Position numbers and translations under genes: made by a program. A stretch of DNA of 64,000 nucleotides from Polyangiaceae bacterium (GTDB lineage Bacteria; Myxococcota_A; Polyangia; Polyangiales; Polyangiaceae), in the NCBI GenBank assembly GCA_016715885.1, contig JADJXL010000022.1, positions 139,588-203,587 on the forward strand, written 5' to 3'. Below the pieces are notes generated by a model. It was not told the origin of the DNA, ran no database searches, and was given only the letters and a program-made list of their open reading frames with translations. Positions 1,926 to 48,466 of the stretch are shown one piece after another (the stretch's first letter is position 1; each line of letters begins with the position of its first letter).

Positions 1926-1987
1926 GCTCACTTCGATGCTTGCAATGAAGGATGTGTGCCCCGTTTCGACGAACGCGGCATGGAGGA

Positions 1988-13645: not shown

Positions 13646-13676
13646 GGGCCCTGATCCTTTGCTCCAGAATCGCTGC

Positions 13677-18443: not shown

Positions 18444-18591
18444 TGGGCTCGCAGCGCCTCTCGCGAACACGGGTTGCTGATGAAGTGCATTCCGCGACGC
18501 GCAGACTAACGAAACGCGCTGTCGAGAGTAAAGCCTCGTCCGCACGGATCGGGCGAACGGTATCTTTCGGTACTTCGCAGGTGACGCTCCG

Positions 18592-19194: not shown

Positions 19195-19427
19195 GTGGCC
19201 GAGCGCGTTAGCACATTTCTCACGATGCGCGAAAGCGCAGCACGACATGCTCCCCACATCCTGGCCCCAACAGCGTCGCAAAAGAGCAATGCGCCCAAAA
19301 CCCTGATAGAAGGGGAAGAAGAATTTCAGACGATAGGTGCCTCATCCCGTGCCGAGCTCTTGTCGATCCTGGTGCATCGACGTCGCGCAAGGGCTGATGC
19401 GCCGTTCTCTTCATTCAGGGCGCGAGC

Positions 19428-22400
19428 ATGATCAACGTCCAGTGCGACGGATGTAAATCTCCCTACCAGGTCGATGAGCGGCGAGTCCCCGCATCGGGGC
19501 TCAAAATGCGTTGCTCCAAGTGCGGCAACTCGATCTTGGTGGAGAAGCCGACGGTGGATCTTGCGGGACGGAGCGATCTGCCCGTCCCCGCGTCACCACG
19601 ACCGAAGGGCGTCGCGCCCGTTTTTCCTCGCGGCCCGGTCCTTCCCAAACAAGGCCTTCCAACGCCCAAAGCCGTGGTTCCAACGACGCCGGAAAAAGCT
19701 GCGCTCGCTTTCGCGCGCGGCGAAGGCAGTCGTTTCGACATCCCCGCGATGGATGATGACGCTCTCGCCGAGCTCGATCTGCCGTCGCCCGCAACGTTGG
19801 TTTCAAAAGAAAAACCCGTTGCAGTCGCGATGGATCCGCTTGCGGACGAAGGCATTCGCGCATCCGACCGACCTACGGCTCCGCGCGCCGTCGATGAAGC
19901 AAGCGTGTTCGATCGAATCACGAGCGACGACCATCGCAGGCCGTCCGAACGACCAACGGCCCCGCACCTTCCCGCCGTTGCCGTTCCCAAAACGAGCGTC
20001 ACCAAAGCTGCCGAGCGTGATGTCGACGTGCCGCCTCGAGGCAAAGCCACGGTGCGCCAAATGGCTGCGGTGATACCCGATGAAATGGCCCTCGATCTGC
20101 CTGCGCTCGCGCCGTCACGCGACGCCATCGCTCCTCCATTGCCGCAACCCAATCGTTCGGCCGCGGAGCTTTCTGCCGCTGGGACAAACCCGTCGGCACG
20201 CGACGCGAACAAGGCCGAGCTTCCATCTCCCGCGCGCCCACCAGCAAAACGCACGCTCGAGATCGACCTTCCGGATACAGGGCTGCCCATCGACGAAGCA
20301 GCAATGGCCTTCGGCGAAATCGACCTGCCTGCCACCGTGCCTGCGCATGCAGGAGCCAAGGGCTTTGGCGCGATCGGCTTGGCCGCTCCCGCGCCGCCTC
20401 GTGAACCGGCCAAGTCGTTCGGAGAAATCGATCTTCCCGCGGTCCCTGCACCTTCGCCATCCAAGTCCCCGGCTCCGGCGATGAAATCCCGCCCGGGCAA
20501 CGCCGATCTACCCGTTCTGAGCGACGCGGCATTCGGCGAAATCGACCTACCTGTTCCCGACGTTGCGACGTCCGACGACGGCGGGTTTGGCGAATTCGAA
20601 CTTCCTGCTCCCGAAGCCGACGCGTCCTTCGGCAAGCTCGATCTTCCGCTTCCGGTCGGACAGAGCGGCGAACATCAGTTCCCGCCTGCAGCCAAACCAG
20701 CGACGACCGCCAGCGCTGTCGCCGCGTTTTCCGTGCTTGGCGACCTCGAGCTGCCGCTGACGAGTGAATCGTCGATGAACCTCAGCGCGGTCGTGCTGCC
20801 GCCATCCAAGCCGGCAAGTCCTGCGCTCGACTTCGCGCTCGATGAATTGTCGCTGGATGCGCCCGCGTCGAAGCCGAAAGCGCCGAGCGATGCGACGCGG
20901 CAATCCATGCCATCCATACCGGGCGAAGAGTTTTCCCTTGGTGTGCAAACGAATAACACGCCTTCACCGGGGCCGAGCAAGGGCACGGACATCACGGGCG
21001 GTATCGGCGACGAAGTGGAGCTCGGTGTTGGCGATGCCGGTGCAGCGGATGCCGCAGCTCGGAAAGACAAACCTGCCAAAGGTGGTCGTCAAGATGCTGC
21101 GCCCGCTCCTGCAATGAGCCGCAAAGAGCGGTTGCGACGGCGTGCCCTCACCATGGGGATCGCCGTGCTCGTTGCCGTCGGCGGAGGATCCCTCGCGCTC
21201 CTGCCCGACATCGGTCCTTTTGGCATCTATGCCATCACCGACACCATCAAGGCCGATGATCACGCTCGAGCCCTCATGCAGCTCGAAACCAACGTTCAAA
21301 CGATGCTCGACGAGGACACTGCGGGCAGTGCCGCTCGTGCATTGACCACGGCCAAAGCCGCGCAGATCAACTTGCCGCGACATCGAGCGACCGCAGCGTA
21401 TACGGCCTACGTCGCTTTCCTCAGCAGCATTCGCCATGGACCGCGCGCAAGCGACGAGACGTTCGGCAAACAGTTGCTCGAGTTCGTCGCGGATACACCG
21501 AGCCGTGAACGCATGCTCGCGGTCGCGGCGAAACACAAGGCTGCAAACAAGCTCGAAGCCGCCAGGCGCGTTGTCAAAGACGCCGGCGGGCCGCAATCGA
21601 AGGACATCGATACCCTCGCGCTCATCGGGGAGATCGAGCTTGCCGCGGGCATGAAAGAAGACGCGCTCGCCGTGTGGAAACACGCGGTTTCGCTGCGGGA
21701 AAAGAGCGCCAGAGCGCTCTTCGGGCTCGCACGCGCGCAGCATGCCGCCGGTGACTTCAATGCAGCAGAAAAGAACGCTCGCGCAGTCATCGAGGTGTCC
21801 CCCAAACACGCCGGCGCTCGCATTTTACTCGCCACCATCATTGGTCGATTTCCAACCACCGAAGGAGAAGCCATCGCCCTCTTGAGCAAAGTGACGGATC
21901 AAGGCGAAGTGCGCACTGCGACGAGCGAAGGCCAAATCGTGCAAGCCTTCATCGAAGCTGGTCGTATCCATTTGCTCCGTTCACGTGTCTCCGCCGCGGC
22001 CGATGCGTTTGCCGAGGCCCTCAAGATGGATCCGCGCAACGTGCAAGCTCTGATTGGCGACGGCGAGCTCTTCTTCCGATCGGGCCGCAATTCACAAGCC
22101 CTGCTTCGATTCGAAGAAGCCATGCGCGCCGACGATACGAGCATTCCGGCAAAGGTCGGGGCGATCAAAACCCTTCTCGCGCTCGAACGCATGAAGGACG
22201 CCAAGGATCTCGCGAAAAAGATCCGCGAAGCAAAACCTGAATTGTCCATTGGCGCGTATTGGCTCGGCCGCGTCGAAGAAGCGCTTGGCAGCAAAAAAGA
22301 CGCCGAAACGCTCTACCTCGAGGCAATCAAGCTCGGCGGCAGCGATTCGGACATCGTCGATGCCTACGTTTCTCTCGTCGCACTCCTGTCGTCGGTTGGT

Positions 22401-23570
22401 CGAGCTGAAGAGGCGCAAGCCAAACTTGCCGAGGCCAGCGCCAAGTATCCCGACCTCGCCGCACTCCATCGCGCCAAGGGTGAGGTGCTCTCGGAAGCCG
22501 GCCGCTATGCCGAAGCTCGCGCGGAATTCGAGGCAGCTCTTGCAAAAGAGGACGACCTTGGAACACGCTTTCGTCTCGGCGTGACGCTCCGCCGCATGCG
22601 CCTCTTCGAAGAAGCAATGGGCGTGCTCGACAAACTCCAGACCGCCGACAAGGATTATCCGGGCCTGGCGCTCGAACGAGGCATCCTTTATGCAGAAATG
22701 GGGCAAAGCGAACGGGCCCTCGAGATGTACGCCGCAGCGCTCGAAAAAGCGCCCAACGACGTCGACCTCAAGCTCCGCGTAGGATCGACGCAGGTCATTG
22801 CTGGACACCCCGACGAAGCAGAAAAAATCCTACGCGAAGTATTGAAAGATCGGGCCGCGTCCGCAGATGCCAATCACTTCCTCGGTCGGGCCCTGCTTCT
22901 CAAGGGTGGAAGCGCGGCCGAAGCCATTCGGTTTTTGGATCGCGCCACCGAAATCGATGCCAATCGCGCCGAATATTACCTGTACGTTGGCTGGGCTGCG
23001 AACGAGCTCAATCAAGTTCAGCGCGCCGAACAAGCCATCCAACGCGCCCTGGAGCTAGACCGGGAGCTTGCCGACGCTTATTGGCAACGAGCCATTCTCT
23101 ATCACAAACAAGGCCGAACGCTCGATGCGCTCGCGGATCTCCAGGTCGCCCTGGCAAAACGGCCGTCACGCTATGAAGCGTATGCCACGATGGCGCTTTG
23201 TTATCAGGACCAGGCGCGCTGGCCCGATGCAACCGCCGCGTGGATCAAAGCGATCGAGGGCAATGGATCCATCGCGGAATGGCATTATCGCCTGGGCAAA
23301 ATCTACGAAGGCAATGGCAATCGCGCGGCCGCCGCGCCCGAGCTCGACAAAGCCGTCGAGCTCGTCGAGGCGAAACCGAATATGTCGCAATCGTGGCATT
23401 TCGACCTGTATTTCCTTTACGGTGAAACCATGCAAGCCACCGGGCAAAAGGAAAAAGCCCTCAAAGGCTACAAACGATACCTGCAGCTCGCACCCGTCAA
23501 CAATGCCTATCGGCCCGATGCCGAGCGAGCCATCAAACTCCTCGAACCACGGGGCCCTGGGTCACACTGA
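19428..23570 (+). CDS. Protein with an MJ0042-type zinc ribbon, a Pro-rich linker carrying a repeated [F/L]GE[I/L]DLP motif, a single TM helix and a long TPR domain. The architecture resembles GltJ/AgmX.
   Basis: The N-terminus is MINVQCDGCKSPYQVDERRVPASGLKMRCSKCGNS (CxxC..CxxC). About 450 aa of Pro/Ala-rich low-complexity sequence follow, with at least six FGEIDLP-like motifs. A TM helix (LTMGIAVLVAVGGGSLALL) precedes more than 700 aa of TPR repeats. Confidence 0.7.
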   Translation: MINVQCDGCKSPYQVDERRVPASGLKMRCSKCGNSILVEKPTVDLAGRSDLPVPASPRPKGVAPVFPRGPVLPKQGLPTPKAVVPTTPEKAALAFARGEGSRFDIPAMDDDALAELDLPSPATLVSKEKPVAVAMDPLADEGIRASDRPTAPRAVDEASVFDRITSDDHRRPSERPTAPHLPAVAVPKTSVTKAAERDVDVPPRGKATVRQMAAVIPDEMALDLPALAPSRDAIAPPLPQPNRSAAELSAAGTNPSARDANKAELPSPARPPAKRTLEIDLPDTGLPIDEAAMAFGEIDLPATVPAHAGAKGFGAIGLAAPAPPREPAKSFGEIDLPAVPAPSPSKSPAPAMKSRPGNADLPVLSDAAFGEIDLPVPDVATSDDGGFGEFELPAPEADASFGKLDLPLPVGQSGEHQFPPAAKPATTASAVAAFSVLGDLELPLTSESSMNLSAVVLPPSKPASPALDFALDELSLDAPASKPKAPSDATRQSMPSIPGEEFSLGVQTNNTPSPGPSKGTDITGGIGDEVELGVGDAGAADAAARKDKPAKGGRQDAAPAPAMSRKERLRRRALTMGIAVLVAVGGGSLALLPDIGPFGIYAITDTIKADDHARALMQLETNVQTMLDEDTAGSAARALTTAKAAQINLPRHRATAAYTAYVAFLSSIRHGPRASDETFGKQLLEFVADTPSRERMLAVAAKHKAANKLEAARRVVKDAGGPQSKDIDTLALIGEIELAAGMKEDALAVWKHAVSLREKSARALFGLARAQHAAGDFNAAEKNARAVIEVSPKHAGARILLATIIGRFPTTEGEAIALLSKVTDQGEVRTATSEGQIVQAFIEAGRIHLLRSRVSAAADAFAEALKMDPRNVQALIGDGELFFRSGRNSQALLRFEEAMRADDTSIPAKVGAIKTLLALERMKDAKDLAKKIREAKPELSIGAYWLGRVEEALGSKKDAETLYLEAIKLGGSDSDIVDAYVSLVALLSSVGRAEEAQAKLAEASAKYPDLAALHRAKGEVLSEAGRYAEARAEFEAALAKEDDLGTRFRLGVTLRRMRLFEEAMGVLDKLQTADKDYPGLALERGILYAEMGQSERALEMYAAALEKAPNDVDLKLRVGSTQVIAGHPDEAEKILREVLKDRAASADANHFLGRALLLKGGSAAEAIRFLDRATEIDANRAEYYLYVGWAANELNQVQRAEQAIQRALELDRELADAYWQRAILYHKQGRTLDALADLQVALAKRPSRYEAYATMALCYQDQARWPDATAAWIKAIEGNGSIAEWHYRLGKIYEGNGNRAAAAPELDKAVELVEAKPNMSQSWHFDLYFLYGETMQATGQKEKALKGYKRYLQLAPVNNAYRPDAERAIKLLEPRGPGSH

Positions 23571-24409: not shown

Positions 24410-26146
24410 TCAGCTTGCTTGCACAGGCTCCGGCTCCGCTGCCGGAGGTGGTTCGGCTGGCGCTTCCGGAGCCGGCACATTGGCCTCGGCAATCGCTGCA
24501 TCCTCTGCTGCCAGCAATCGATCACTTTCCGCAAGTGCCGCGTCGTGCTGCGCGATGATTTTCGCCGTGCGCGCCTTCGCCAATCCCAAAAAGAGTAGCC
24601 CGAACAGCGCCCACGCGGCCGACATGAACACCGAACCGACCACCAAAATGTCTTCCTTGCCCCGATCGAGCGCATCGAGCGCAAGGAAAGCATAAAATGG
24701 AGACGGTGCGGCCACGACGAGCGCCGACCGATCAGACGCCGACGACACGACGCCCGCAATGGCCGCGACGACCCACGGCCCAATCGCGACGAGGAAATGC
24801 ACCGCGAGAAGCAGCATCCGCGCCGCGAGCGTGGTGTTCGTGCGCGACCGCAAAAATGCGGCAAACCCCACGGAGAACGCGAAGAAACCCACGATGTACA
24901 CGGCGACGATCAAGATTTCGCCCGTGTACGAGCCGCCCGAATACTTGGGCGGTACGGCAATCAGTCCTACGACCGTCGGAAGCATCAGAGCAACCGTGCC
25001 GACGAAGAGCTCGAGCGTCGAGGTCTTGACGATGCTCGGTCCCAGAAATCGCTTGAATTTTCCGATATTTGCCCGATCCCAATGGAGAACCACGCGGCGC
25101 GAAGGTCCGAGAGAATCGCCGGTGAAAAGATACACGCCCATCATCAGAAAGACGAAGTGGGCAGACAAGGCGGCAATGCACACGCCCATTCGATCCCGCG
25201 GGTCGACGGCAAAAATGGGGATCGACGTCGCAATGGCAAAAATGGGCGTGCAGATGGCATACCAACGCTTCAATCCCGTAGAACGGTCGTCGGTGATGCT
25301 CGTCAAATTCGCCACGGTCACTTCGTAGAGAAACCAGGCGGGCAGGGCAGCGAGCGCAATGGGCAAAAGCACGAGCAGTCCGAGGTACGTCAGGTCGAAC
25401 GGCGCACGAGCATACGCTGTCGGAAGCCATACCGGAGGCCCATCGGGAACGCCCGGCCAAAGCGAATGCGCTCCGTAGGACAAACCCACGCCGAGAAACC
25501 CGTACACGTTGAGCGACACGATGACCGCGCATAGAAGCGATACGACCAGCGCAGCTCGCAAACTGTTCATCTTCGAACTGATCGCCAGACCAAATGCGAC
25601 CGCAAGCCCCGCGATCAAAAACAAGAATGCGAATGCAACGATCGTTTCGGTCGCCGTCACACCGCCGAACAAGAACGGAAGCGCTCCGACCGGCGCGAGC
25701 ATCACGACGTACATTCCAATCGACGTGTACGCCGCCAAAAACTTGCCGCGAGCAATGACGGCGGGCCGCAAACCCGTCAAAATCACCGCTTCCCACGTGC
25801 GTCCTTCGCGTTCAGCAGCAATCGCATTCGCCGCCACGCCTGGCCCCACGAACGTCACCACGAAGTACGCAATCGAGAAAAATACTTGAAAAAGAACGTA
25901 CCCCGTCGTCGCCGGGCTTTCGTTCATCGATACGAGCCCACCGACCGAAGCAATGAGCAGCGTCGTGAGCACCGCCAGCACGCAAAGAATGACGGGCGTC
26001 CGTACGAGGCGTGCTGATTGCCGCAATTCGCGGATCCACAGCGGATTCGGGTCGTCCAAAAGCCGCCGAAAACGAAACCGTGCCCTGTCCCCCATTCGCC
26101 GTGAAACGGGACCTGCCGGTGCGTTCGTGCCCGTCTGTGCGCTCAT
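24410..26146 (-). CDS. ABC-2-type transporter permease (about 12 TM helices).
   Basis: A very hydrophobic multi-helix protein. Its start overlaps the stop of the upstream ABC ATPase gene (ATGA). Confidence 0.6.
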   Translation of the reverse strand: MSAQTGTNAPAGPVSRRMGDRARFRFRRLLDDPNPLWIRELRQSARLVRTPVILCVLAVLTTLLIASVGGLVSMNESPATTGYVLFQVFFSIAYFVVTFVGPGVAANAIAAEREGRTWEAVILTGLRPAVIARGKFLAAYTSIGMYVVMLAPVGALPFLFGGVTATETIVAFAFLFLIAGLAVAFGLAISSKMNSLRAALVVSLLCAVIVSLNVYGFLGVGLSYGAHSLWPGVPDGPPVWLPTAYARAPFDLTYLGLLVLLPIALAALPAWFLYEVTVANLTSITDDRSTGLKRWYAICTPIFAIATSIPIFAVDPRDRMGVCIAALSAHFVFLMMGVYLFTGDSLGPSRRVVLHWDRANIGKFKRFLGPSIVKTSTLELFVGTVALMLPTVVGLIAVPPKYSGGSYTGEILIVAVYIVGFFAFSVGFAAFLRSRTNTTLAARMLLLAVHFLVAIGPWVVAAIAGVVSSASDRSALVVAAPSPFYAFLALDALDRGKEDILVVGSVFMSAAWALFGLLFLGLAKARTAKIIAQHDAALAESDRLLAAEDAAIAEANVPAPEAPAEPPPAAEPEPVQAS

Positions 26147-27285
26147 TGCACATCCCCCCGCGTGACTTCCAGGAAGATTCGCTCGAGCTCGTTACGTTCG
26201 GGCTCGACGCCCACGATGCCAATACGTTGATGCACCAAGTGCTGAACCATTTCGGCGATTTTCGTTTCGGTGCCCGTGTACCCGACGTGCACGACGCCCC
26301 CGATGATGCTGACTTCCACGATGCCCGGCCCGCCTCGAAGCAAGTACGCCGCTTGTTCCGGATTGCCGATGACGCGGAGTTTTACGCGACGCACCGCCGG
26401 AGCCGCCGGTACCGGTGGCTGCCACGCTGCTTGTTGCGAAGGCTGCGCGGGATATCCCGGCGGCGCGCCTGGTTGCGCTGTCGGAGGAGCCACGCGCGCT
26501 GCGCCCGTGTATGCAGGCGGAGGCGCGTGCCCCATTGCCTCGGCCGCTCGAATGGCTTCCAGGCGCGACGAAATTTCGTGAATGGGCCCAGCCACCACGA
26601 GCCGTCCTTTTTCCAAAATGCCAATCGATGTACAAACATCCGACAATTCCGTCAAGATGTGTGACGAAAGCAAAATGGTTTTTCCCAGCCCTCGCAGCTC
26701 CAAGAGCAAATCCCGTATCTCGATACGCGCCCGCGGGTCGAGATCGCTCGCCGGTTCGTCCAGAATGAGCACCTTCGGATCGTGCAAGAGAATCCGAGCA
26801 AGCTGAAGCCTCTGCTTCATGCCTTTCGACATTTCCGCCACGAGACGATCCTGAAGTTTGCCGAGGTCGGTCAATTCGAGCACCGCGTCGACGACGTTGA
26901 TCGAGGGAACTCGAAATGCGTCCGCGAAAAACTCGAGATACTCGCGCACCGTGATCCGATCGTAAACGCCGGCATGGTCGGGCATGTATCCAATGATTCG
27001 GCGGACTTCCTCCGGATCCATCGTCACGTCGATGCCGTCGATTTCCACGCGGCCCGCCATTGGTTCGAGCAGCGTCGCCATCACGCGAATCGTCGTGGTT
27101 TTTCCGGCTCCGTTCGGGCCGATGAAACCAAAAATTTCCCCCGGCCCCACGTCGAACGTCACGTCGCGCAAAACGTCACGATTGCCATAACGATGCCACA
27201 AATGACGCACTCGAATCGTCGGCGGCGGAAGAGGCGCAGAAGGCTCGGGCGATTCAATCTGGACCGCGCTCGACGCTTCGCTCAC
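26143..27285 (-). CDS. ABC transporter ATP-binding protein with a Pro-rich C-terminal extension.
   Basis: Walker A is GPNGAGKTTT. The ABC signature is SKGMKQRLQLAR. Walker B is ILILDEPASDLD. The proposed GTG start overlaps the upstream stop (GTGA at 27282-27285). Confidence 0.75.
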   Translation of the reverse strand: MSEASSAVQIESPEPSAPLPPPTIRVRHLWHRYGNRDVLRDVTFDVGPGEIFGFIGPNGAGKTTTIRVMATLLEPMAGRVEIDGIDVTMDPEEVRRIIGYMPDHAGVYDRITVREYLEFFADAFRVPSINVVDAVLELTDLGKLQDRLVAEMSKGMKQRLQLARILLHDPKVLILDEPASDLDPRARIEIRDLLLELRGLGKTILLSSHILTELSDVCTSIGILEKGRLVVAGPIHEISSRLEAIRAAEAMGHAPPPAYTGAARVAPPTAQPGAPPGYPAQPSQQAAWQPPVPAAPAVRRVKLRVIGNPEQAAYLLRGGPGIVEVSIIGGVVHVGYTGTETKIAEMVQHLVHQRIGIVGVEPERNELERIFLEVTRGDVQ

Positions 27286-29366
27286 GGGCGACCTCCTTGA
27301 CCCACGATCCGCACGAGAAGCCGATCTTGTTCGAGCTTCAGCCCCGCATCCGACGTTTTCCCTTCGCCCCCATCGAGCTGCGCCAAAAGTACCGGCACAT
27401 CCTCCGGGAACCAATTCACGACCCCTCCGGCACTCTCTTCAATCGCTTGCCATGCCGCGCTGAGGCCCGCAGCATCATCATCGACGATTCTTTCGAGCGA
27501 CGAAGCGCGTAGCGGCTGCATCGTCAGCGACCCCGACCGACCTACCGTTGCCGTCACGCTCGTTAACCAAGCTCGGCCCGGTTTCGTGCTGCCGACGTCT
27601 TGACCGGCGCTCGCCAATACTCGCTCGCCGTCACGAATGGTCGCAAAATAGCGAGCATTTCCGCCGGGCAGCATCAACAGCGCAGCGCGCATGTCACGAC
27701 CGGAACGATTGATGACCGCTGTATCCGTTTCATTCTCCGTCACGATGGCAATGCCTTCACCAAGGTCGGCAAACCCATCCTCGCGAATGACCACGGTTTG
27801 CCATGGCAATGCGGCTACATCGACCAAACGCGCCCCATCACGATCGACCACCAAGTGATCGTTGATCGTCGCCGGCGCCGAGACGAATGCCGTATTCACG
27901 ACCGATGTCGAATCGCTCGTGCGCACCGTGAGATCCTTGGCCCTCGGCGTAAAGAACCCTCGCCACCTGCGCGCCGTACCTTTCGACATTCCCGCGCCTG
28001 CTTCGACCAGCGTGAGGTGTCGTGACCGGCCACTGACACCCTTGGCCACGAACCCAATCACGACGATCGCGAAGAACGTGACGGCGGCAAAAATCGGGAG
28101 CCAAATCAGCGCTCGCAAAGGTTTGCCCTTATTGGCATTCAGCGTGAAATTGATGGGAGCCGCAATCACCGCGTACGCAAGGAGCAAAAGAGCTGCAACC
28201 GCAATGGCCCAGCGCGATCCCTCGTTCGGGTCCAATTGCTTGCGAATACCGTCCGACGAATACCCTGCCGGCGTCGACCCTTGACGATAAATGATCGTGC
28301 TACGCCGATCGAAAGCCCGACGCGCCATATCGAGCACGCGTCCCTGCACCCACGGATCGTCGACTGCGGGTTTGCGCGTCGGGTCGAATGCGAGCAAGTG
28401 AAATTCACCGAGCCCGTAATACGCCGACGCCCCATAACGACTACCGCGCAAATTGCCCCCGGAAAAACCCACGAGCGACTTGCCCACTTCTTCCTCGGCC
28501 GACTCCGCAAAAGGAATCTTCTTCGCGGCATTCGACGGCGCGATGGGCAGCCGCAATTCACGCAACGTCTCCGAATGCACGGACGCCATCGTGACGTCTC
28601 CCCCCGCAAACGCAGCCACCACCGGACTCCGAACATCCTCCGGTCGCGCCAATGCAACCGCCAGCGTGCCGCCGGCCAGGACAAACCCACTCAGCGCATC
28701 GAGCTCCACCGCCGTCACGCGCGACAGCACATCCGAGCGAATGAGCACGGCCGACGCAGGTGCATACAGCGCCGCTCGATCCGGAAGAACGGGATCACCC
28801 GTCGCAGGATCGAATCGCGGCGATCCAACCTGAAGCTGCGGACCCGAACCATACGAAGGCACGCTGCCCCAAGGCGCGTATTGCGGCGAAATCCAAGCTT
28901 CGTGCATCACTCCGCGAAGACGCGAAGCCTCGGTCACGTCGAGCAAAAACACGCCGGGCGAATTCGTCACGGTCGCCCCGAGCGTGCCTAGCTCGATGCC
29001 CGCGTCGTTACGCACCACGATCTTCACGTCACCATACACGTTCGCATGCGCTGGCAACCGCACCATCGCCGCAGCGCCCGCGCCAACGACGAAAGGCGCC
29101 GTCGCTCGATATCGAAATTGGTTTGAGTACAAACGGCTTTCGAGCTCGACTTCGCCGCGCACGGGCTGCTGCTCGTTGTTCTGCACGCGCACCAGGAACC
29201 CGCTGTAACCTTGCGGGACCGGCGCTGCGGCGCCGAACATCTGCGTGATGTCGACGGCGACTTGCGGCGCTCCTTGCTGAGGCACCTGTTCAATCGATGT
29301 GGCGGACGCCGTTGAAGCCAGAACGATGCCCGCCGTTAGACTCGACGCAAAAACAAAAGACTTCAT
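27282..29366 (-). CDS. Exported protein with a signal peptide and C-proximal TM helices. It may be an ABC-transporter auxiliary (GldG-like) or BatD-like component.
   Basis: The signal peptide is MKSFVFASSLTAGIVLASTASA. Two TM helices lie around residues 380-440. The start overlaps the MoxR stop (ATGA). The function is unknown. Confidence 0.5.
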   Translation of the reverse strand: MKSFVFASSLTAGIVLASTASATSIEQVPQQGAPQVAVDITQMFGAAAPVPQGYSGFLVRVQNNEQQPVRGEVELESRLYSNQFRYRATAPFVVGAGAAAMVRLPAHANVYGDVKIVVRNDAGIELGTLGATVTNSPGVFLLDVTEASRLRGVMHEAWISPQYAPWGSVPSYGSGPQLQVGSPRFDPATGDPVLPDRAALYAPASAVLIRSDVLSRVTAVELDALSGFVLAGGTLAVALARPEDVRSPVVAAFAGGDVTMASVHSETLRELRLPIAPSNAAKKIPFAESAEEEVGKSLVGFSGGNLRGSRYGASAYYGLGEFHLLAFDPTRKPAVDDPWVQGRVLDMARRAFDRRSTIIYRQGSTPAGYSSDGIRKQLDPNEGSRWAIAVAALLLLAYAVIAAPINFTLNANKGKPLRALIWLPIFAAVTFFAIVVIGFVAKGVSGRSRHLTLVEAGAGMSKGTARRWRGFFTPRAKDLTVRTSDSTSVVNTAFVSAPATINDHLVVDRDGARLVDVAALPWQTVVIREDGFADLGEGIAIVTENETDTAVINRSGRDMRAALLMLPGGNARYFATIRDGERVLASAGQDVGSTKPGRAWLTSVTATVGRSGSLTMQPLRASSLERIVDDDAAGLSAAWQAIEESAGGVVNWFPEDVPVLLAQLDGGEGKTSDAGLKLEQDRLLVRIVGQGGRP

Positions 29367-30388
29367 CGACGCATCGCCTGCTCGACGTTCTCCGGACGCG
29401 TGGGCACGTTCTTCACGAGCTCTTCGACGACCTGATCGGTCGTGATTCCATCCGCTTCACCCTCGAACGAACGGATGAGCCGATGCCGCAGCACGGGCTT
29501 GGCCACGCGCTGCACGTCAGCAAACGACACGTGCGCTCGCCCTTCGAGCAAACTCACGGCCTTCGATGCCAACACGAGCGACTGTGCGCCACGCACGCCG
29601 GCTCCATAGCGAATCGCTCGACGCACGAGGTCCGGCGCGCCGCTCATCGATGGATCGCTCGCTCGCACGAGGCGCGATGCGAACCGCATGATGGGCTCTG
29701 CAACGGCGACGTCTCGACACGCCGATCGCAACTCGAGCACTTCGTCTCGATTGAGCACCGGGTTGGGCGCGTCTTTCGGCTGACCCGTCGTTCGCACGAG
29801 GATCTCGGTCATCTCGTCTTCGTCGGGACTCGGAACGATTACTTTGAGCAGAAAACGATCGAGCTGCGCTTCGGGCAAAGGGTACGTGCCCTCCATCTCG
29901 ATGGGATTTTCCGTCGCGAGCACGAAAAACGGCTGCTCCATTGCATGACGTACGCCACCGATGGTGCACGCGTGCTCTTGCATCGCTTCGAGCAGCGAGC
30001 TTTGCGTCTTCGGCGTCGCGCGGTTGATTTCGTCCGCGAGCACGATCTGTCCGAACACGGGCCCTTTGTGCAGCGCGAAGTGGCGACTTCCATCGGCTGC
30101 CGTCACCAGAATGTTCGTGCCCGTAACATCGCTCGGCATCAGATCCGGCGTGAACTGGATGCGCGAAAACTTCAGCTCCAGCGCGCTCGCAATCGTGCGC
30201 ACCAGCAGGGTTTTTCCCAGGCCCGGCGCACCCTCGAGCAGCACGTGGCCGCCCGACAGGATGCCCCAAAGCACCTGCTCGACGACCTCTTCTTGTCCCA
30301 CGATCACTTGCCCGATCGTTTCCTTGAGTCGATTGCTCGCCTCGCGCGCCCGATCGAGGCGCTTTTGAAAATCACCAGCGCTCGTCAT
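29363..30388 (-). CDS. MoxR-family AAA+ ATPase.
   Basis: Walker A is LLEGAPGLGKT. Walker B is VLADEINRATPKTQSSLLEAMQE. The length of about 340 aa is typical of MoxR proteins. Confidence 0.85.
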   Translation of the reverse strand: MTSAGDFQKRLDRAREASNRLKETIGQVIVGQEEVVEQVLWGILSGGHVLLEGAPGLGKTLLVRTIASALELKFSRIQFTPDLMPSDVTGTNILVTAADGSRHFALHKGPVFGQIVLADEINRATPKTQSSLLEAMQEHACTIGGVRHAMEQPFFVLATENPIEMEGTYPLPEAQLDRFLLKVIVPSPDEDEMTEILVRTTGQPKDAPNPVLNRDEVLELRSACRDVAVAEPIMRFASRLVRASDPSMSGAPDLVRRAIRYGAGVRGAQSLVLASKAVSLLEGRAHVSFADVQRVAKPVLRHRLIRSFEGEADGITTDQVVEELVKNVPTRPENVEQAMRR

Positions 30389-30453
30389 GTGAACCTGGAG
30401 CCTAGCCTTTCGTGGCCGTTCGATGTGGGGGTTTTCGAATCACGGCAAATCGC

Positions 30454-32265
30454 CTACTTCGGTTGGAAGTACCGACCCACCTGCTCGCGATACTCTTCCG
30501 GCACGTCGCTTCGTTCGACCGCGCCAAGCTCGGCAGGCGCCGCTTGTCCAAGTGCGCCCGTGCCTTGAATGTTCGCGGTTTCACCCGCTTTGCCCGTCGT
30601 TCGGCCGAGCGTCACGCCGGGCATCGACGGAGCCTTGTTGATCGGACCCGATGCGCGCGCCTTCACGCCCGGACCATCGACCACGCCGGTTTGTCCTTTG
30701 TGATCCCCAGGCCCGCCGCCTTCGCTGTGTCCGGCTTGCGGACTGCTGCCGTCTTTGCCCCCGTTTTTCCCTCCAGAACCAGGTTTGTCTCCTGGAACCG
30801 GCACAGGCATGGGCGCTCCTCCGAGCTGCCCTTCGCACTCACCCGCGCCTTCTTGCGCGTCGTCGAGCTTCTTCTGGCGCTGGCCTTCTTCCGAGCCTTC
30901 GCCTTGCTCCGCTTCGGCCATTCGTTTCAGCTGTTCCGCCAAGCGCTTTTGCCCTTCGGGCGATTCGAGCTCTTCGGCGAGCTCTTTCAACTGCTCCTTC
31001 GACGGCCCTTCACCCATGTCGCCTTCGCCCATTTGCTCGGCGCGCTTTTTCATGTTTTCCGCGAGCCGCTTGCGTTCTTCCGGCGTGAGTTTGCCCAGGG
31101 CCTCTTCCAATTTTTCAGCGAGCTTTTGTTGCTCTTTGGCGCCGCCCTTGCCGCCTTGAAAATCCTTCAGCGCTTGCTTCGCATCCTCGGGCAAACCTTC
31201 GCCGAGCGCTTTGCCGAGCTCGCTCAGCTTCTGGTTTTTCTTGGCCATCTCCTCCATGCGCTTGCGCTCTTCCTCGAGCGCTTTGGCGACGTCCGGAGCG
31301 TTGGCCTTGCGCGCAGCTTCCGCTGCTTCTTCCATCGTCTTCAGCGCCTTTTCGCGGTCTTCCTTCTCGAGCCGGTTGGCCAGCTTTTCCATCTCCTCGT
31401 CGAACGACACGAGGTCCCGGTCGCCGAGGGCTTTGGCCGCGTTTTTCAGGTCCGGGTTTTCCCCGAGCTTGCCCAGAGCCGATTCCAATCCCGCGCGCTG
31501 TTCACCATCGCCGAGTGACAACCGCTCGGCCGTGATGGCGTCTTTGAGCTTGGCGATCTCCGCTTGGGCCTCGCGTTTTTCCATGCCCTCACGGAGTTTG
31601 TCCCGGAGCTTTTTCGCTTCTTCGGCGAGTTTGTCGAGGCGCTTGCGTTGCGCTTCGTCGCGCGCGCTGGCGTTTGCCAAATCGATGATCTTGTCGAGCC
31701 CTTTGATCTCGGCGAGCTTCACCATGTCCGCACCCGGAGGCGGAGCGGGCGCTACTGGCGCGGGCGGAAGAGGCAACAAGCTCACGTAACCGATCGCGGC
31801 CAAACCGAGCGGAATGGCCAGATGCCAGGGGCGAAACCACGACACACGAGCTTCTTTTGGAGCCGCTTTCGACAGCACTTCGGCCGCATGCGTGATCACG
31901 ACGGCGCGTGCAGGATCGTCGCCATTCGACTCGCGACGTTGCAGATCCACCGCCGTTGCGATGCTTTCCTTGCCGTCGAGACGACCATCGAGGTACAGGG
32001 CGACTTCGTTGTCGCTCCAGCGCTTGCGACGCGCAATCAGCGCGCCCGCTGCAGCACCGAGCGCGCCGCCGGTCGCCATCCACGGGCGCAAGGCTCCGTG
32101 CCGAGTTTGCCATGCCGCAGCGGATGCAGCGGTGCCGAGCACGAGGCCCAGAGCTGCGCCAGTGAGCACTCGTTCGAGCGCGAGACGCCGACGAACCCGG
32201 CCTGCGTAGCGGCGAAAAACATCGCGAAAAGAGCTGTCTACGGACGACGAAGCGCGCTTTGCCAT
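30454..32265 (-). CDS. Membrane protein with N-terminal TM helices, a long Glu/Lys-rich low-complexity region (read as coiled coil from composition alone) and a Gly-rich C-terminal region.
   Basis: Hydrophobic helices lie near the N-terminus (VLTGAALGLVLGTAASAAAW). An extended KE-rich region has a composition typical of coiled coils. It is the first gene of the MoxR operon. Confidence 0.5.
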   Translation of the reverse strand: MAKRASSSVDSSFRDVFRRYAGRVRRRLALERVLTGAALGLVLGTAASAAAWQTRHGALRPWMATGGALGAAAGALIARRKRWSDNEVALYLDGRLDGKESIATAVDLQRRESNGDDPARAVVITHAAEVLSKAAPKEARVSWFRPWHLAIPLGLAAIGYVSLLPLPPAPVAPAPPPGADMVKLAEIKGLDKIIDLANASARDEAQRKRLDKLAEEAKKLRDKLREGMEKREAQAEIAKLKDAITAERLSLGDGEQRAGLESALGKLGENPDLKNAAKALGDRDLVSFDEEMEKLANRLEKEDREKALKTMEEAAEAARKANAPDVAKALEEERKRMEEMAKKNQKLSELGKALGEGLPEDAKQALKDFQGGKGGAKEQQKLAEKLEEALGKLTPEERKRLAENMKKRAEQMGEGDMGEGPSKEQLKELAEELESPEGQKRLAEQLKRMAEAEQGEGSEEGQRQKKLDDAQEGAGECEGQLGGAPMPVPVPGDKPGSGGKNGGKDGSSPQAGHSEGGGPGDHKGQTGVVDGPGVKARASGPINKAPSMPGVTLGRTTGKAGETANIQGTGALGQAAPAELGAVERSDVPEEYREQVGRYFQPK

Positions 32266-32422
32266 CGTGGTCTTCTTTGTACTCGGTGACCGCCCGGAGC
32301 GCTACCGGGTTGCCCTGGATCGAACAGCAATCTTTCAGCGGTCTCTGCACACCAAACGTTGCATCGAATCGGTCTTGTGCGTGGTAGGCTCGCGCGCAGC
32401 GTTCAAAGCGCCGGCTCATCGC

Positions 32423-35400
32423 ATGGATACTCACGTCGGTTTCCCCAGCCCCGTAGACGCCACCACCGAGCATGGCGTCGTGCTAGGGCGCCCGAACGAA
32501 TTCGTCGACGTTGCTTTGGCAGCAGGGCGGTACTTTCAAGATGCGCTGCCCATCGTGGGTCGGACCGAAGAGCTGCAAACGCTCGTGAACTTCATCGAAA
32601 CGCCCGGTACAGCGCGCGTCGTCGTCCTCGTGGGGCGAGCCGGATCGGGCAAGACGAGCCTCTTGGCAGCGCTCGCGGAGACGCTTTCGCAGCGCAATGT
32701 CACGCAAGCTGTGCGATTCGCGGCGGATGTCGCGTCCGTCGCAGCGCAGCATGCACCGCGGTTGCCCAAAGGTCCGAGCGTCATCGTCATCGACGATGCG
32801 CACCGAAAGCCATGCACGGCGGCGCTTTTGCACGCTGCGCAGCACCGTCCGGAAGTAGCGTTTGTCTTGACCACCCGCCCCGGCGGTTTGTCGCGGCTCG
32901 TGGCACTTTGTGCAGAGCGCGGACTTTCCGAAGCTGATATTCGCGTACTGCCCGAGATTGGGCCGCTATCGACGGATGACGCCGAACGTTCCGCCCGTCA
33001 CGTGCTCGATGAAGAATTCGGCGCTCATGCAAAACAGCTTGCGACCATTTCTGCAGGCCACCCGCAACTCGTGTCGATTGCCGGGCGCCTCGTGCGTGAA
33101 AAAGCGCTTCATCCCGTGGCGCTCGAGCAGCCCGCGGATTTCGGCGCTCGAGTGCTGGCGCGAGGTTATGAAACGCTGCTCATGCGTGCCTCGGTGACGC
33201 CTGATCAAAAGCTTTTTGGTGGCGTGCTCGGTCAAGTCACCGATATGCTCGGGATCGTTGCTGCCCTTGCGCCCGTGCGTACGTCGGACGAACGGTTTTT
33301 GCAGGGCGCGGGCGAGCTTTTGGGATGCCGTCGTCGCGATTTGGTATCGGCATTGCGCGCATTGGAAACGACAGGCATCATCGAGCGTTCGGCGCCGGGG
33401 GCGCGTGTCGTGCCAACGGCGCTTGCCGATCATGCATTGCTCCGACTTTTAACGGCTCCCTTGCCGCTTCCCGGGACATTGGCCGAGCGAGTGAGCGTCA
33501 TCGTTCGGCATTTTGGCATTCACGCGCTCGTGCCTCTGTTCCGTAACCTCGGCGAAATGGATGGCCCCTCGATTCCGCCCGGGAGCGCGTCCAAGTTTGT
33601 CGCGGAACTTTTCGAGTATTGCCGTGACGCACTCGATGTCGCATCGACCATGGATCGTTGCCGGCTTCTTTCATCCTTGCGTGAAGTTTGTATTGATGAA
33701 CCCGCCGGAATGCTCGAATTGGTCGAATTTGCGCTACAATTGCCACCGCTCACCGATACCGCGCCGAAGTCCCGCGTGCTTTTGTCGGAAACGAGCGTGA
33801 CGAACGAGTTGTCGCCGATATTGCAGCGAATTGCATTGCATCGGCAACATCTGCCCGAGGCGGTCGATTCGCTGTGGGCGCTCGGTCGCGACGATGTGCG
33901 GCTGCAAAGCCCGCATCCGGATCACCCCATGCGCGTGCTACGTGAATTCGCGTCACGAGCGCATACGTTGCCCGTCGGGTTTCACGAGGCGCTGCTCGAT
34001 GCCGTCGAAAGGTGGCAAATGGTGCCCCATGCCCACGATCACCAGCATTCGCCGCTCGATGTGATCGACACGTTTCTCGCCGAATCGGATGCGCCCATCA
34101 GCGACGACGCATTGGCGAGCAGGCAGCGCAGGCTCCGCACGCGAGCGCTCGAATCGCTTGCGCGTGCAGCGGGATCATCCAATCGGCGAGCGGCTCTTGC
34201 AGGCGTGCGAGGTCTCGAAGGCGTGCTCACCGATATGGCGACGCATTCGTCTGCGGGGTTTCCCGAGGCGGATTGGCGCGACGGCGAGCGGCTCGAAGTG
34301 ATTGAAATGCTTCGCAAAACCGCGACGAGTGCCGCCGATCCGGTGGTTCATTTCGCCGTTGCGGACGTACTCCGGTGGGCCGCGCACCGAACGCCGAATG
34401 ATACCATTTGCATTGCTGCGGAACTGGCGCTCGCTGACGTGCCGGATTCATCGGAACGCCGGCTGTACGAAGCGCTGACGCAAAGGCCGCCCGCACAACG
34501 CGCCGGACTCGACCTCGATGCGCCGCCGTCGTCGAGGCTTTTGCCCGAAACGAGGAACAACGAGCCTCGCGGGGCCGAAACTGCGCGAATCGTCATTGAT
34601 GAATGGATGGCCAAGGGGCCATTGCCCGCGGCATTCGTTCAACAAACGGCCGAAGCGCTGGATACGCTCTCTCTTGCGGGCAAATCGGGTTCACCTCGCG
34701 TGCTTTTGCAGGTGCTTTCTCTGAAGCATCCGGAAGCTGCTGCGAAAGCGTGCGAGGTCATCATGCAATCGCCCGATGGGCCTCTCGGGCCGCATGTTGC
34801 CGCGCTCCTGCACACATTGCGAGAATCGGCTCCCGAGCGGGCGGCCGGCCTCGTGCAGAATATCGTGACCGGCAGTAATGCGACGCTTTGTGCATCCCTT
34901 GCGCAGGCATTTCCTCGCTGGGTCGATAAACCTCGAAATGGTGACCGCGAAGCATTACGCGCGCTCCTTGGGCATCCGGATGGCTTCGTGCGTCGAGCTG
35001 CGCTTGGCGTATTGCGTACGCTTGCAAAGACGGCGCCGCACGATGCCGTGGCATTGGCGGTCGAGGTCGATCTTTCCGAGGGGGCCGAGGCTGTCGAAAC
35101 GCTTTTTGGGGCGCTCGATGGCGGAAAACTTTTCGTCGGCGATGCTCTTTCCGTGGAAGAAATCGTGGCATTTCTGTCGCGTCTTTCCGCTGCGACGAAC
35201 CTGGAAGGGCACTCCACGATTCGTTTTTTGCACTTTGCGGGAAAACGTTTGCCCGAAGAAACCGCACTCTTGCTCATCGAGCGTATCGAGCGGCTCGTGG
35301 GGCCAGGCGTTTTGGCCATCGAGAACTTCGTGGCGCTTCCATCCGAAGGGCTGGGATCGATTTTGGCCCGTCTTCCCGAATCGCCCGAGTGGGTCGCCAT

Positions 35401-48443: not shown

Positions 48444-48466
48444 TTCCCACCGAAGTTCGTCCCTAC

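Follow-up and report, generated by a model that had tools for sequence, protein, structure and literature searches.

A MoxR-ABC-2 gene cluster of Polyangia is probably the first half of an eight-gene Bat-type envelope operon

We found that five minus-strand genes of a Polyangiaceae bacterium, here called g1 to g5, probably form the first half of an eight-gene envelope system that is specific to Polyangia and is a variant of the Bat type. The full order would be g1, MoxR (g2), g3, ABC ATPase (g4), ABC-2 permease (g5), DUF58, BatA/vWA, and vWA/GATase1-like, with a NosFY/GldAF-like ABC-2 transporter and its GldG-like periplasmic partner, g3, placed between MoxR and DUF58. In the lineage of the window (the whole 64,000-nucleotide stretch that we analyzed), the operon would have split, and its last three genes would now lie 13 kb away.

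As an earlier sequence-only reading had reported, the five genes are open reading frames on the minus strand between 24410 and 32265, and they overlap by ATGA at g2/g3, GTGA at g3/g4, and ATGA at g4/g5. The g1/g2 junction is a 65-nt gap. The DUF58 and vWA genes were also where that reading had placed them, 13.2 kb off on the opposite (plus) strand at 45474 to 51598.

The product of g2 (29363 to 30388, minus strand; 341 aa) had been called a MoxR ATPase, and we confirmed this. It matched AAA_3 (PF07726; E = 3.9e-61, 205 bits against a cutoff of 27) and AAA_lid_2 (PF17863; 1.3e-16), and it matched bpMoxR far more weakly than AAA_3 (8e-13). The Walker A (GAPGLGKT) and Walker B (DEINR, within LADEINR) motifs read from the translation are intact. 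In a PDB search, the best solved relative was 2r44 (5.6e-76), followed by midasin and RavA. Because g2 has neither a signal peptide nor a TM helix, we place it in the cytoplasm. It is the sole MoxR within the window, and as befits a MoxR-proper ATPase, it has a DUF58/vWA genomic partner, 13 kb off in the window itself but sharing the operon of MoxR in 23 relatives and in L081.

Gene g1 (30454 to 32265, minus strand) encodes a predicted inner-membrane protein of 603 aa. In a hydropathy scan, its Arg-rich N terminus was followed by a TM helix at residues 33 to 51 and a weaker one at about 60 to 78; next come a loop domain of about 65 aa, a TM helix at 148 to 167, and a Pro-rich linker. The C-terminal part comprises a conserved K/E/A-rich helical region of about 290 aa and a Gly/Pro-rich stretch, and the C-terminal motif VPEEYREQVGRYFQP was near-invariant in a 25-sequence alignment. 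The helical region had been described as charged, low in complexity, and coiled coil. It is charged, but it is well conserved in sequence and not merely low-complexity, and the coiled coil was left unconfirmed by a heptad periodicity that was not significant (z ≤ 2.3) in a global test that misses short or interrupted coils. Neither g1 itself nor the members of its alignment matched a Pfam or NCBIfam model, those for DUF4175, BatD, GldG, and ABC_transp_aux included. The g1 family had 512 matches, and among the 120 matches listed, the named sources were all Polyangiaceae, Sorangiineae, or genera thereof; judged by these matches, g1 is a lineage-restricted family. It adjoins MoxR, directly upstream, in most loci. 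In Sorangium it lies in convergent orientation about 4.8 kb from the MoxR locus and so stays within 5 kb despite rearrangement.

The third gene, g3 (27282 to 29366, minus strand), encodes a predicted exported membrane protein of 694 aa. It starts with a Sec signal peptide (ASA/TS), which is followed by an Ig-like beta-sandwich (36 to 143), a class-I-GATase-like alpha/beta domain of the ThuA/GldG/IFT52 type (177 to 350), a TM hairpin (383 to 447), a beta-rich domain (450 to 590), a second alpha/beta domain (595 to 690), and a conserved acidic C-terminal tail. The TM helices are thus mid-protein, with a domain of about 245 aa after them, and not C-proximal as first read. We predict that both large parts lie in the periplasm, which leaves a hairpin loop of 4 to 5 residues as the only cytoplasmic portion. 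Since g3 is almost wholly periplasmic, the cytoplasmic MoxR cannot act on it directly. Of the relationships suggested for g3, the likeness to GldG applies to the GATase1/GIFT-like fold and not to the sequence, which matched neither GldG nor ABC_transp_aux, and the likeness to BatD or DUF4175 is unsupported, with no match to a Pfam or NCBIfam model. At an E value of 0.1 or below, g3 had no Pfam or NCBIfam match at all; none of 32 homologues matched GldG or ABC_transp_aux, and one of the 32 gave a weak match to DUF4350 (0.023). A PDB sequence search with the g3 profile returned no match, and Foldseek against the PDB returned generic Ig-like sandwiches only. An hhalign comparison of g3 with the vWA/GATase1-like protein of the window aligned the expected "D-vil-d...GGxL" strand-loop motif at an E value of 0.5, which is not significant. 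These searches indicate that g3 is a new sequence family.

For the ABC ATPase gene, g4 (26143 to 27285, minus strand; 380 aa), we take as start codon the GTG inside GGAGGTCGCCCGTGA, which has an AGGAGG-like ribosome-binding site, and not the TTG of the longest open reading frame. Its product matched ABC_tran (1.8e-31), has Walker A (GPNGAGKT), signature (MSKGMKQR), and Walker B (LILDEP) motifs, and carries a C-terminal domain of about 80 aa joined via a Pro-rich linker. The SKG..QR of the signature resembles LSKGYRQR of GldA (PMC9127263). The best PDB matches were ABCA nucleotide-binding domains (4e-57), and NosF matched at 8e-39. By its sequence, we assign g4 to the DrrA/GldA/NosF/ABCA type. 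Its best NCBIfam match was GldA (TIGR03522; 215.9 bits, below the equivalog cutoff of 402.6), and that of the permease g5 (24410 to 26146, minus strand; 578 aa) was GldF (TIGR03518; 22.1 bits, below the cutoff of 288.5). The g5 protein of the window matched ABC2_membrane_2/3 at just 1e-4, and all 17 homologues tested also matched, the best at 8e-9. We class it as an ABC-2 permease on this family match together with the type V exporter fold of its N-terminal half, a transmembrane domain closest to NosY. Its C-terminal half has some 6 to 7 further TM helices and then an Ala/Pro-rich tail. A PDB sequence search with g5 gave no match. NosY, the closest solved permease, is reportedly a periplasmic assembly motor and not a bulk exporter in work on NosDFY, and for this reason we treat the label "exporter" for g5 as unproven.

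On the plus strand, the DUF58 protein (45474 to 46370; 298 aa; PF01882, 5.9e-41) has a vWA-like fold with a DASAS MIDAS and no TM helix and is therefore assigned to the cytoplasm. It is followed by a BatA-like membrane vWA protein (46371 to 48443; 690 aa) that matched BatA (PF07584; 2.6e-8) and VWA_2 (PF13519; 4.8e-14). It opens with the double-TM BatA domain at its N terminus, continues with a vWA domain whose MIDAS reads DASAS and a large domain, and closes with a C-terminal TM helix. By the positive-inside rule, its vWA domain is predicted to be periplasmic, which agrees with the experimentally determined periplasmic location of the BatA-type vWA domain of Borrelia BB0173 (PMC5700661). The third gene (48467 to 51598) encodes a membrane protein of 1043 aa with N-terminal TM helices, two vWA domains (MIDAS DRSRS and DISGS), a GATase1_like domain found by Pfam, and one C-terminal TM helix. 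MIDAS motifs were intact in all three vWA-type proteins. The pairing that marks a Bat-type system, DUF58 with a vWA membrane protein bearing the BatA N-terminal domain, is thus present, and Pfam searches of the eight proteins gave no BatD, TPR, or SH3 (BatB/C/E-type) match. No MoxR accompanies this triad, which we therefore regard as the detached second half of the system that starts with g1 to g5. The DUF58 protein is the detached partner of g2.

We compared related loci. The sequence-only reading had named a lack of conserved gene order as grounds for its own rejection; g2, g3, g4, and g5 follow one another in this order in about 80 Polyangia genomes (virtually all of 80 related loci on sufficiently long contigs), down to 29 to 37% g3 identity, so this objection falls away. 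The 4-nt ATGA overlap of g4 and g5 is retained in nearly all of these loci. The arrangement is more than chance. Of 65 informative loci, 23, the earliest-branching ones included, have a same-strand DUF58 gene 3' of g5, and in 21 of the 23 it directly adjoins g5. BatA/vWA and then vWA/GATase1-like genes come after DUF58, often with 4-nt overlaps; a BatA-like gene is next to DUF58 in 17 loci, and an orthologue of the 1043-aa protein is the final operon gene in L081, L071, L049, and L059. The operon is complete in L071 and also in L081, where all eight genes are present with 4-nt overlaps. Identities to the L081 orthologues were 52%, 43%, and 55% for the triad, in line with the 67%, 30%, 61%, and 42% of the five-gene part. 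In a neighbor-joining tree of g3, built without support values, loci in the contiguous state formed the earliest branches and the split state was nested inside. Nine loci with g3 identity below 50% had no adjacent DUF58. Taken together, these comparisons suggest a Bat-like operon that carried an ABC module between its MoxR and DUF58 genes and that was later split. On this reading, MoxR has kept DUF58 and vWA as partners and not traded them for an ABC exporter.

It had been proposed that the ABC-2 exporter and its auxiliary protein replace DUF58/vWA as the direct target of MoxR, which would give a self-contained five-gene system for chaperone-assisted export. This would fit the translational coupling and shared conservation of the five genes, the lack of an adjacent DUF58 or vWA gene in the window and in the Polyangium/Sorangium clade, and the g1-MoxR-g3-ABC-permease order that L083 and L084 keep at 27 to 49% identity. 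Against the proposal stand the DUF58, BatA/vWA, and vWA/GATase1-like genes, downstream of the permease in the same operon in the 23 loci; the window itself retains all three orthologues and no second MoxR, and g3 is beyond the reach of MoxR. We now consider direct coupling quite unlikely. We also think it unlikely that the ABC-2 exporter and its accessory protein form a system independent of and unrelated to a Bat-like MoxR/vWA system, the two lying side by side with no functional meaning. The ABC module sits inside the MoxR-DUF58 pair and not beside it, the order and 4-nt overlaps persist across lineages in which g3 identity is only 30 to 40%, and g3 homologues seldom occur without MoxR, which was absent from just one of four distant g3 contexts checked. 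Independence would nevertheless account for L085 and L086, in which g3 and a fused ABC ATPase-permease are present with MoxR and g1 not adjacent, and which show that the ABC module can exist apart from MoxR. It would also agree with the self-sufficiency of MoxR-DUF58-vWA in many other phyla (PMC5700661, PMC5898192) and with the separation of the two halves that is tolerated in many genomes, the window included.

A GldAFG-type transporter for surface motility or polymer (slime) secretion, with MoxR as an assembly factor only, seems very unlikely. Like GldA, GldF, and GldG of Flavobacterium johnsoniae, the Polyangia genes encode an ABC ATPase with the SKG..QR signature, a COG1277-type ABC-2 permease, and, in g3, an accessory membrane protein whose periplasmic domain is GIFT/GATase1-like, with the GldG/IFT52-type fold. 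The best NCBIfam matches of g4 and g5 point the same way, and the hosts are Polyangiaceae, gliding myxobacteria of the soil. However, myxobacteria and Bacteroidota glide by unrelated machineries, both NCBIfam scores fall far under the equivalog cutoffs, and g3 has no GldG match. Pfam scans found no gliding or T9SS genes nearby. In architecture, g3 departs from GldG by its cleaved signal peptide, its Ig-like domain, and its central TM hairpin; g5 is twice as long as its counterpart, and the operon is linked to MoxR and occurs in another phylum. [quoted passage not shown] Least probable of all, and in our view hardly credible, is a NosDFY-like machine that matures a metalloenzyme, with MoxR/vWA acting like NorQD to insert metal and the ABC-2 module driving loading in the periplasm. 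The COG name is no more than a label at family level. NosD, NosL, NosZ, and any other metalloenzyme target are absent from the operon in every locus examined, and Pfam scans of the cluster, flanks, and related loci revealed no NosD beta-helix, nosZ, or nosL. The fold of the periplasmic partner also differs from that in NosDFY (PDB 7o0y), and g5 carries an extra half of 6 to 7 TM helices relative to NosY.

The Bat-type variant that we favor shares with the operons of Bacteroides fragilis (BatI), Borrelia (bb0170-bb0176), Leptospira (bat), and Rhizobium leguminosarum (RL3499-RL3502) a MoxR-proper ATPase, a cytoplasmic DUF58 protein, and inner-membrane BatA double-TM proteins with a periplasmic vWA domain and an intact MIDAS. 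It differs from them in the ABC ATPase, ABC-2 permease, and GldG-like periplasmic protein between MoxR and DUF58, in the new 600-aa membrane protein before MoxR, in having no BatD, TPR, or SH3 genes, and, in the window, in its division into two parts. The role of these operons is envelope-related and undefined (PMC5700661). A DUF4350-MoxR-vWA neighborhood of archaea and some bacteria, predicted to encode a secretion or membrane-remodeling complex (Makarova, Galperin and Koonin 2015, PMC5898192), likewise combines MoxR and DUF58/vWA with a membrane-anchored extracytoplasmic protein that has a GldG-like flavodoxin/GATase1-type domain; the function of both systems is predicted from context alone. 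Unlike the DUF4350 protein, which has a single C-terminal anchor, g3 has a mid-protein TM hairpin and is not a member of that family by sequence, and the Polyangia system has an actual ABC transporter, which the archaeal neighborhood lacks. Our literature searches on MoxR with ABC, GldG, or myxobacteria found no description of this operon.

As a best guess, the system would be an envelope assembly machine with two ATPases; we infer each mechanistic step from context and fold. MoxR hexamers and cytoplasmic DUF58 would form the usual AAA+/vWA chaperone pair and act on the cytoplasmic parts of membrane subunits; MoxR ATPases are reported to take part, together with vWA partners, in remodeling and metal insertion (PMC13036017, PMC9976466). 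The ABC ATPase and NosY-like permease would then spend ATP on moving or loading the periplasmic g3 domains or, alternatively, hand a lipid-like or glycan substrate to g3. The two BatA-like proteins would bind partners through the intact MIDAS of their periplasmic vWA domains; candidate partners are the C-terminal tails of g1 and g3, both acidic and nearly invariant. Finally, g1, whose Pro-rich linker and long charged helical region are reminiscent of TolA, could tether the complex toward the cell wall or outer membrane. Overall, the machine would assemble or maintain an envelope structure. A bolder version, which we hold tentatively and think rather improbable, is that MoxR/DUF58 and g4/g5, the latter as an ABC-2 mechanotransducer, are two motors working on the same periplasmic vWA/GIFT-domain proteins, with the acidic tails of g1 and g3 bound by MIDAS, to build or power a Polyangia-specific trans-envelope structure. 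Its outputs could be, for example, surface polymer export, adhesion, or cell-cell contact, and if true, it would give the long-uncharacterized Bat/MoxR-DUF58 systems a concrete, testable output.

To our knowledge, few bacterial gene clusters that lack a known mechanism are as widespread as MoxR-DUF58-vWA operons, and we know of no established function for GldAFG-type ABC-2 transporters with GIFT-domain partners either. The phenotypes described for the Bat-type operons to date (aerotolerance, envelope integrity, and cell shape) are vague. Here the two modules are joined in one translationally coupled operon conserved across the class, which argues that both serve a common envelope process. Strains of Sorangium and Polyangium are culturable, which makes the operon a compact genetic system for testing each module. 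The analysis also defines two new protein families, g1 and g3, both without a Pfam model, and illustrates how a single-genome scan can mislead: through comparison with relatives, a MoxR operon with apparently no partner and a vWA operon with apparently no MoxR could be read as two halves of one system.

In the neighborhood, we could identify no substrate, outer-membrane component, or regulated target. A PADLOC scan for a defense role gave short generic P-loop matches and matched no system model. Promoter and terminator scans gave no more candidates than shuffled sequence, an outcome that carries no information in so GC-rich an organism. Large TPR genes lie nearby, at 8720 to 23570, outside the conserved unit.

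The cluster comprises five minus-strand genes transcribed from high to low coordinates: g1, a membrane protein (30454-32265; 603 aa); g2, the MoxR ATPase (29363-30388; 341 aa); g3, an exported protein (27282-29366; 694 aa); g4, the ABC ATPase (26143-27285; 380 aa, GTG start); and g5, the ABC-2 permease (24410-26146; 578 aa). The longest open reading frame of g4 begins at a TTG at 27414. We found that AAGGAGGTCGCCCGTGA contains a ribosome-binding site and the GTG start of g4, which overlaps the g3 stop codon; the g3/g4 junction is therefore GTGA. A 65-nt gap separates g1 from g2, and the g2/g3 and g4/g5 junctions are both ATGA. The open reading frames and start sites thus bear out the sequence-only reading, which had placed five genes with these overlapping junctions at 24410-32265.

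In a Pfam scan of the window proteins, g2 matched AAA_3 (3.9e-61) and AAA_lid_2, g4 matched ABC_tran (1.8e-31), and the N-terminal half of g5 gave weak matches to ABC2_membrane_2/3 (about 1e-4, below the gathering score); g1 and g3 had no Pfam match. NCBIfam agreed with Pfam; its top match to g4 was GldA and its top match to g5 was GldF, and each score fell far short of the equivalog cutoff. The Walker A (GAPGLGKT) and Walker B (DEINR) motifs of g2 are intact, as are GPNGAGKT, MSKGMKQR, and LILDEP in g4. The nearest solved structures to g4 are ABCA nucleotide-binding domains and NosF, and its signature MSKGMKQR is similar to the LSKGYRQR of GldA (PMC9127263). We assigned the N-terminal half of g5 to the type V (ABC-2) transmembrane domains; no profile similarity links this half to the C-terminal 6 to 7 helices. 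JGI labels the homologues of g5 as COG1277, "multi-copper enzyme maturation permease."

The g3 product is 100% identical to hypothetical protein IPM54_32815 of a Polyangiaceae metagenome-assembled genome. We modeled it with AlphaFold2 from 32 homologues, with moderate confidence (pLDDT 65, pTM 0.63). The model contains a signal peptide (ASA/TS), a beta-sandwich (aa 36-143), an alpha/beta domain (aa 177-350), a transmembrane (TM) hairpin of two long helices that was also seen in a hydropathy scan (aa 383-447), a beta-rich domain (aa 450-590), and then a last alpha/beta domain. According to this predicted topology, both large parts must be periplasmic, with only the loop NKGKP facing the cytoplasm. 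The fold matches, with scores, were ThuA-like 1t0b (7.0), STM3548 (2gk3, 6.7), the N-terminal GIFT domain of IFT52 (5fms, 5.9), the ThuA-like protein 4jqs (5.6), a GH42 beta-galactosidase (3tts, 5.5), and a Planctomycete GATase1-like protein (3rht, 5.0). The trimerization domain of GH42 beta-galactosidase also has a class-I-glutamine-amidotransferase-like fold (PMC5898192). The model indicates that g3 carries a noncatalytic version of this fold, common to GldG and IFT52. We found no invariant cysteine in the 32-sequence alignment, and therefore the amidotransferase nucleophile is absent. For the N-terminal domain, Foldseek returned nothing beyond generic Ig-like sandwiches, a g3 profile found nothing in the PDB, and DUF4350 gave one weak match among the 32 family members. 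HMMER, run against the full set of 1.84 billion representatives, found 470 relatives; among the 150 listed, the complete ones are of similar length (645 to 771 aa). Judged by sequence, g3 lies outside every described family.

Homologues of g1 can be aligned over their whole length. They share an Arg-rich N terminus, three hydrophobic segments (33-51, a weaker one at ~60-78, and 148-167; the first and last exceed the hydropathy threshold), a conserved loop domain of ~65 aa (VALYLDxRL...) that separates segments two and three, a Pro-rich linker, a K/E/A-rich region of ~290 aa with many invariant positions, a Gly/Pro-rich stretch, and the near-invariant C terminus VPEEYREQVGRYFQP (aa 589-603; 30454-30501). 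The positive-inside rule and the hydropathy scan predict that the N terminus and loop domain are cytoplasmic and that the long C-terminal part is periplasmic. g1 fits no family in Pfam, NCBIfam, or PADLOC. A profile search found 512 proteins, and among the 120 listed, all named sources are Polyangiaceae, Sorangiineae, or their genera. The charged region had been read as a coiled coil from its composition. A Fourier test found no long-range heptad signal (z ≤ 2.3), so that reading is not confirmed; "conserved charged helical domain" is a better description of the region. The layout of membrane anchor, Pro-rich linker, K/E/A-rich helix, and conserved C terminus recalls that of TolA, which we take to be an analogy only.

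We searched one genome for each of 185,579 species for relatives of g3, found 127 stretches, and kept the best 80 for comparison. The kept loci that carry informative names all come from Polyangiaceae or Polyangia, among them Polyangium, Sorangium, Minicystis, Byssovorax, and Chondromyces. Using tblastn, we found that g2-g3-g4-g5 are collinear on one strand in essentially every long-enough contig among these 80, down to 37% g3 identity. The ATGA overlap of g4 and g5 is almost universal in the same set, and the remaining junctions are short or overlapping. In most lineages, g1 lies directly upstream of the MoxR gene; in Sorangium, it lies ~4.8 kb downstream and convergent, still within the neighborhood. 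In Sorangium sp. So ce1335 (L082, 10001-21860), the permease and the convergent g1 are separated by a gene for a Ser/Thr kinase and two genes without annotation. Two metagenome contigs carry a far more distant version (MoxR, 49% identity; g3, 29%; g1, 27%) that keeps the order g1-MoxR-g3-ABC-permease. Thus, the gene order is conserved among relatives, the distant contigs included, and the proposal of a linked cluster stands.

The window contains a single MoxR gene. The earlier reading had also pointed to DUF58 and vWA genes on the opposite strand, at a distance of 13 kb, and these are present at 45474-51598. By Pfam, this plus-strand triad consists of a DUF58 gene (45474-46370), a gene with a BatA N-terminal domain and a vWA domain (46371-48443), and a gene with two vWA domains and a GATase1_like domain (48467-51598), and no MoxR gene adjoins it. 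Among the 65 loci with at least 1.2 kb of sequence beyond g5, 23 have a same-strand DUF58 orthologue after the permease, which it abuts in 21. Orthologues of the BatA/vWA and then the vWA/GATase1-like genes follow DUF58 in such loci. In one contiguous operon, L081, the called genes are MoxR, g3 (31% identity), ABC_tran, ABC2_membrane, DUF58, BatA+VWA, and VWA+GATase1_like, and all junctions are 4-nt overlaps or abutting; a second, L071, has the same arrangement. The triad of L081 is 52% (DUF58), 43% (BatA/vWA), and 55% (vWA/GATase1-like) identical to that of the window. These values fall within the range for MoxR (67%), g3 (30%), g4 (61%), and g5 (42%), as expected for orthologues.

In a neighbor-joining tree of g3, rooted on the most divergent member and built without support values, the earliest branches and several clades carry the contiguous eight-gene arrangement. 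Split loci, with the triad away from g5, are nested in the clade of the window, Polyangium, and Sorangium, which also holds a few contiguous loci. This topology makes it most likely that the contiguous operon came first and that the splits arose later. In the sequence-only reading, an ABC exporter had replaced DUF58 and vWA proteins as the partner of MoxR. The conserved linkage and the GldG-like fold of g3 hold. The central point of that reading does not: MoxR has kept its vWA partners, and the ABC module lies between MoxR and its usual DUF58 neighbor.

Two loci lack MoxR and g1 nearby. In L085 (10001-14978) and L086 (2256-7233), an 811-aa ABC ATPase-permease fusion and a 189-aa open reading frame come after a distant homologue of g3 (29% identity). 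Thus, g3 and the ABC transporter form the most tightly linked core, to which MoxR need not be joined. The pantoate genes upstream in both loci match the neighbors of the g1-MoxR version in L083, one of the distant contigs, which suggests that this lineage lost g1 and MoxR.

The DUF58 protein has a MIDAS motif (DASAS) and no TM segment. In the BatA-like protein, a basic loop lies between two N-terminal TM helices; a vWA domain (DASAS) comes next, and basic residues follow a C-terminal TM helix. The helices and their flanking basic residues predict a periplasmic vWA domain; experiments on BB0173, a BatA-type protein of Borrelia, showed this topology (PMC5700661). The third, 1,043-aa protein has two vWA domains (DRSRS and DISGS), a GATase1_like domain, and terminal TM helices. 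g3 ends in a near-invariant acidic tail (aa 660-694; 27282-27389; QLDGGEG..SDAGL.LE.DRLLVR.VG.GGRP) that AlphaFold modeled with low confidence, and the g1 tail is likewise acidic and near-invariant. We speculate that the two tails may be docking motifs, for example, as ligands of vWA MIDAS sites.

The nearest family is the Bat-type MoxR-DUF58-vWA operon, which references in PMC5700661 place in Bacteroides, Borrelia, Leptospira, and Rhizobium (RL3499-RL3502). The Polyangia system shares its MoxR, DUF58, and BatA/vWA features but not its BatD and TPR/SH3 components. For the pairing of MoxR with a GldG-like protein, the nearest predicted analogue is the archaeal DUF4350-MoxR-vWA neighborhood, which Makarova and colleagues proposed to be a secretion or membrane-remodeling complex (PMC5898192); that neighborhood contains no ABC transporter, and g3 falls outside DUF4350. 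The ABC module has functional analogues in GldAFG and NosDFY but belongs to neither: its NCBIfam scores fall short of GldAFG, and NosD, NosL, and NosZ are absent here. A PADLOC scan did not support a defense role. MoxR-vWA also occurs together with transglutaminase-like peptidases (PMC3495828), a context that does not bear on this system, which has no such domain. Our literature searches turned up no account of an ABC-2 module placed within a MoxR/DUF58 operon. Within the system, g1 and g3 are two new protein families, and the way it joins two envelope modules that are both poorly understood makes it a useful lead, in a narrow lineage.

The eight genes are co-inherited and translationally coupled, and they encode two different ATPases. 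We consider it reasonably probable that they form one envelope system; the detailed mechanism is much less certain. MoxR, DUF58, g4, and small parts of g1 are predicted to be cytoplasmic. Most of the other protein mass (g3 and the two BatA-like proteins) is predicted to be periplasmic yet anchored in the inner membrane, as are probably the C-terminal 430 residues of g1. MoxR and DUF58 would form the usual AAA+/vWA pair; MoxR-class ATPases and vWA proteins are described as cooperating in target remodeling and metal insertion (PMC13036017, PMC9976466). The ABC ATPase and NosY-like permease would power a periplasmic event via g3. NosFY acts through NosD, a parallel for g4 and g5 driving g3, and the permease structurally matches NosY. 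GldAFG, on which other envelope machine proteins depend for their stability (PMC9127263), offers a second parallel. The intact periplasmic MIDAS sites, which need acidic ligands, might bind the C-terminal tails of g1 and g3, and the output would be the assembly or maintenance of an envelope structure.

Divergent from g1 is a 1,207-aa STAND-type NTPase (32267-35890, plus strand; start probably overextended), with a NACHT, nSTAND5, AAA_16 P-loop at about aa 96-204 and then a long helical region. It is kept upstream of g1 in the Polyangium relatives L001, L002, L004, L005, and L009-L011 and not elsewhere. Only in the closest relatives (L001, L002, and L004) is the cluster flanked by genes for very large TPR-repeat proteins, here of 1,697 aa (8720-13813, minus), 1,622 aa (13677-18545, minus), and 1,380 aa with an N-terminal zinc ribbon (19428-23570, plus); a small PPIC-type rotamase (18592-19281, minus) lies between them. 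Directly upstream of the detached DUF58 gene is a 311-aa predicted lipoprotein (44206-45141, plus; lipobox VAAC) with no Pfam match and no homologue in the 80 related loci. The window also encodes a secreted metalloprotease of 1,464 aa (1952-6346, plus), of the M36 (fungalysin) type, that carries PA, MAM-like, and PKD domains. A 441-aa protein (39265-40590, plus) has both domains of the copper type II ascorbate-dependent monooxygenases (PHM/DBH-like), which are uncommon in bacteria, and a weak cytochrome c-like match at its N terminus.
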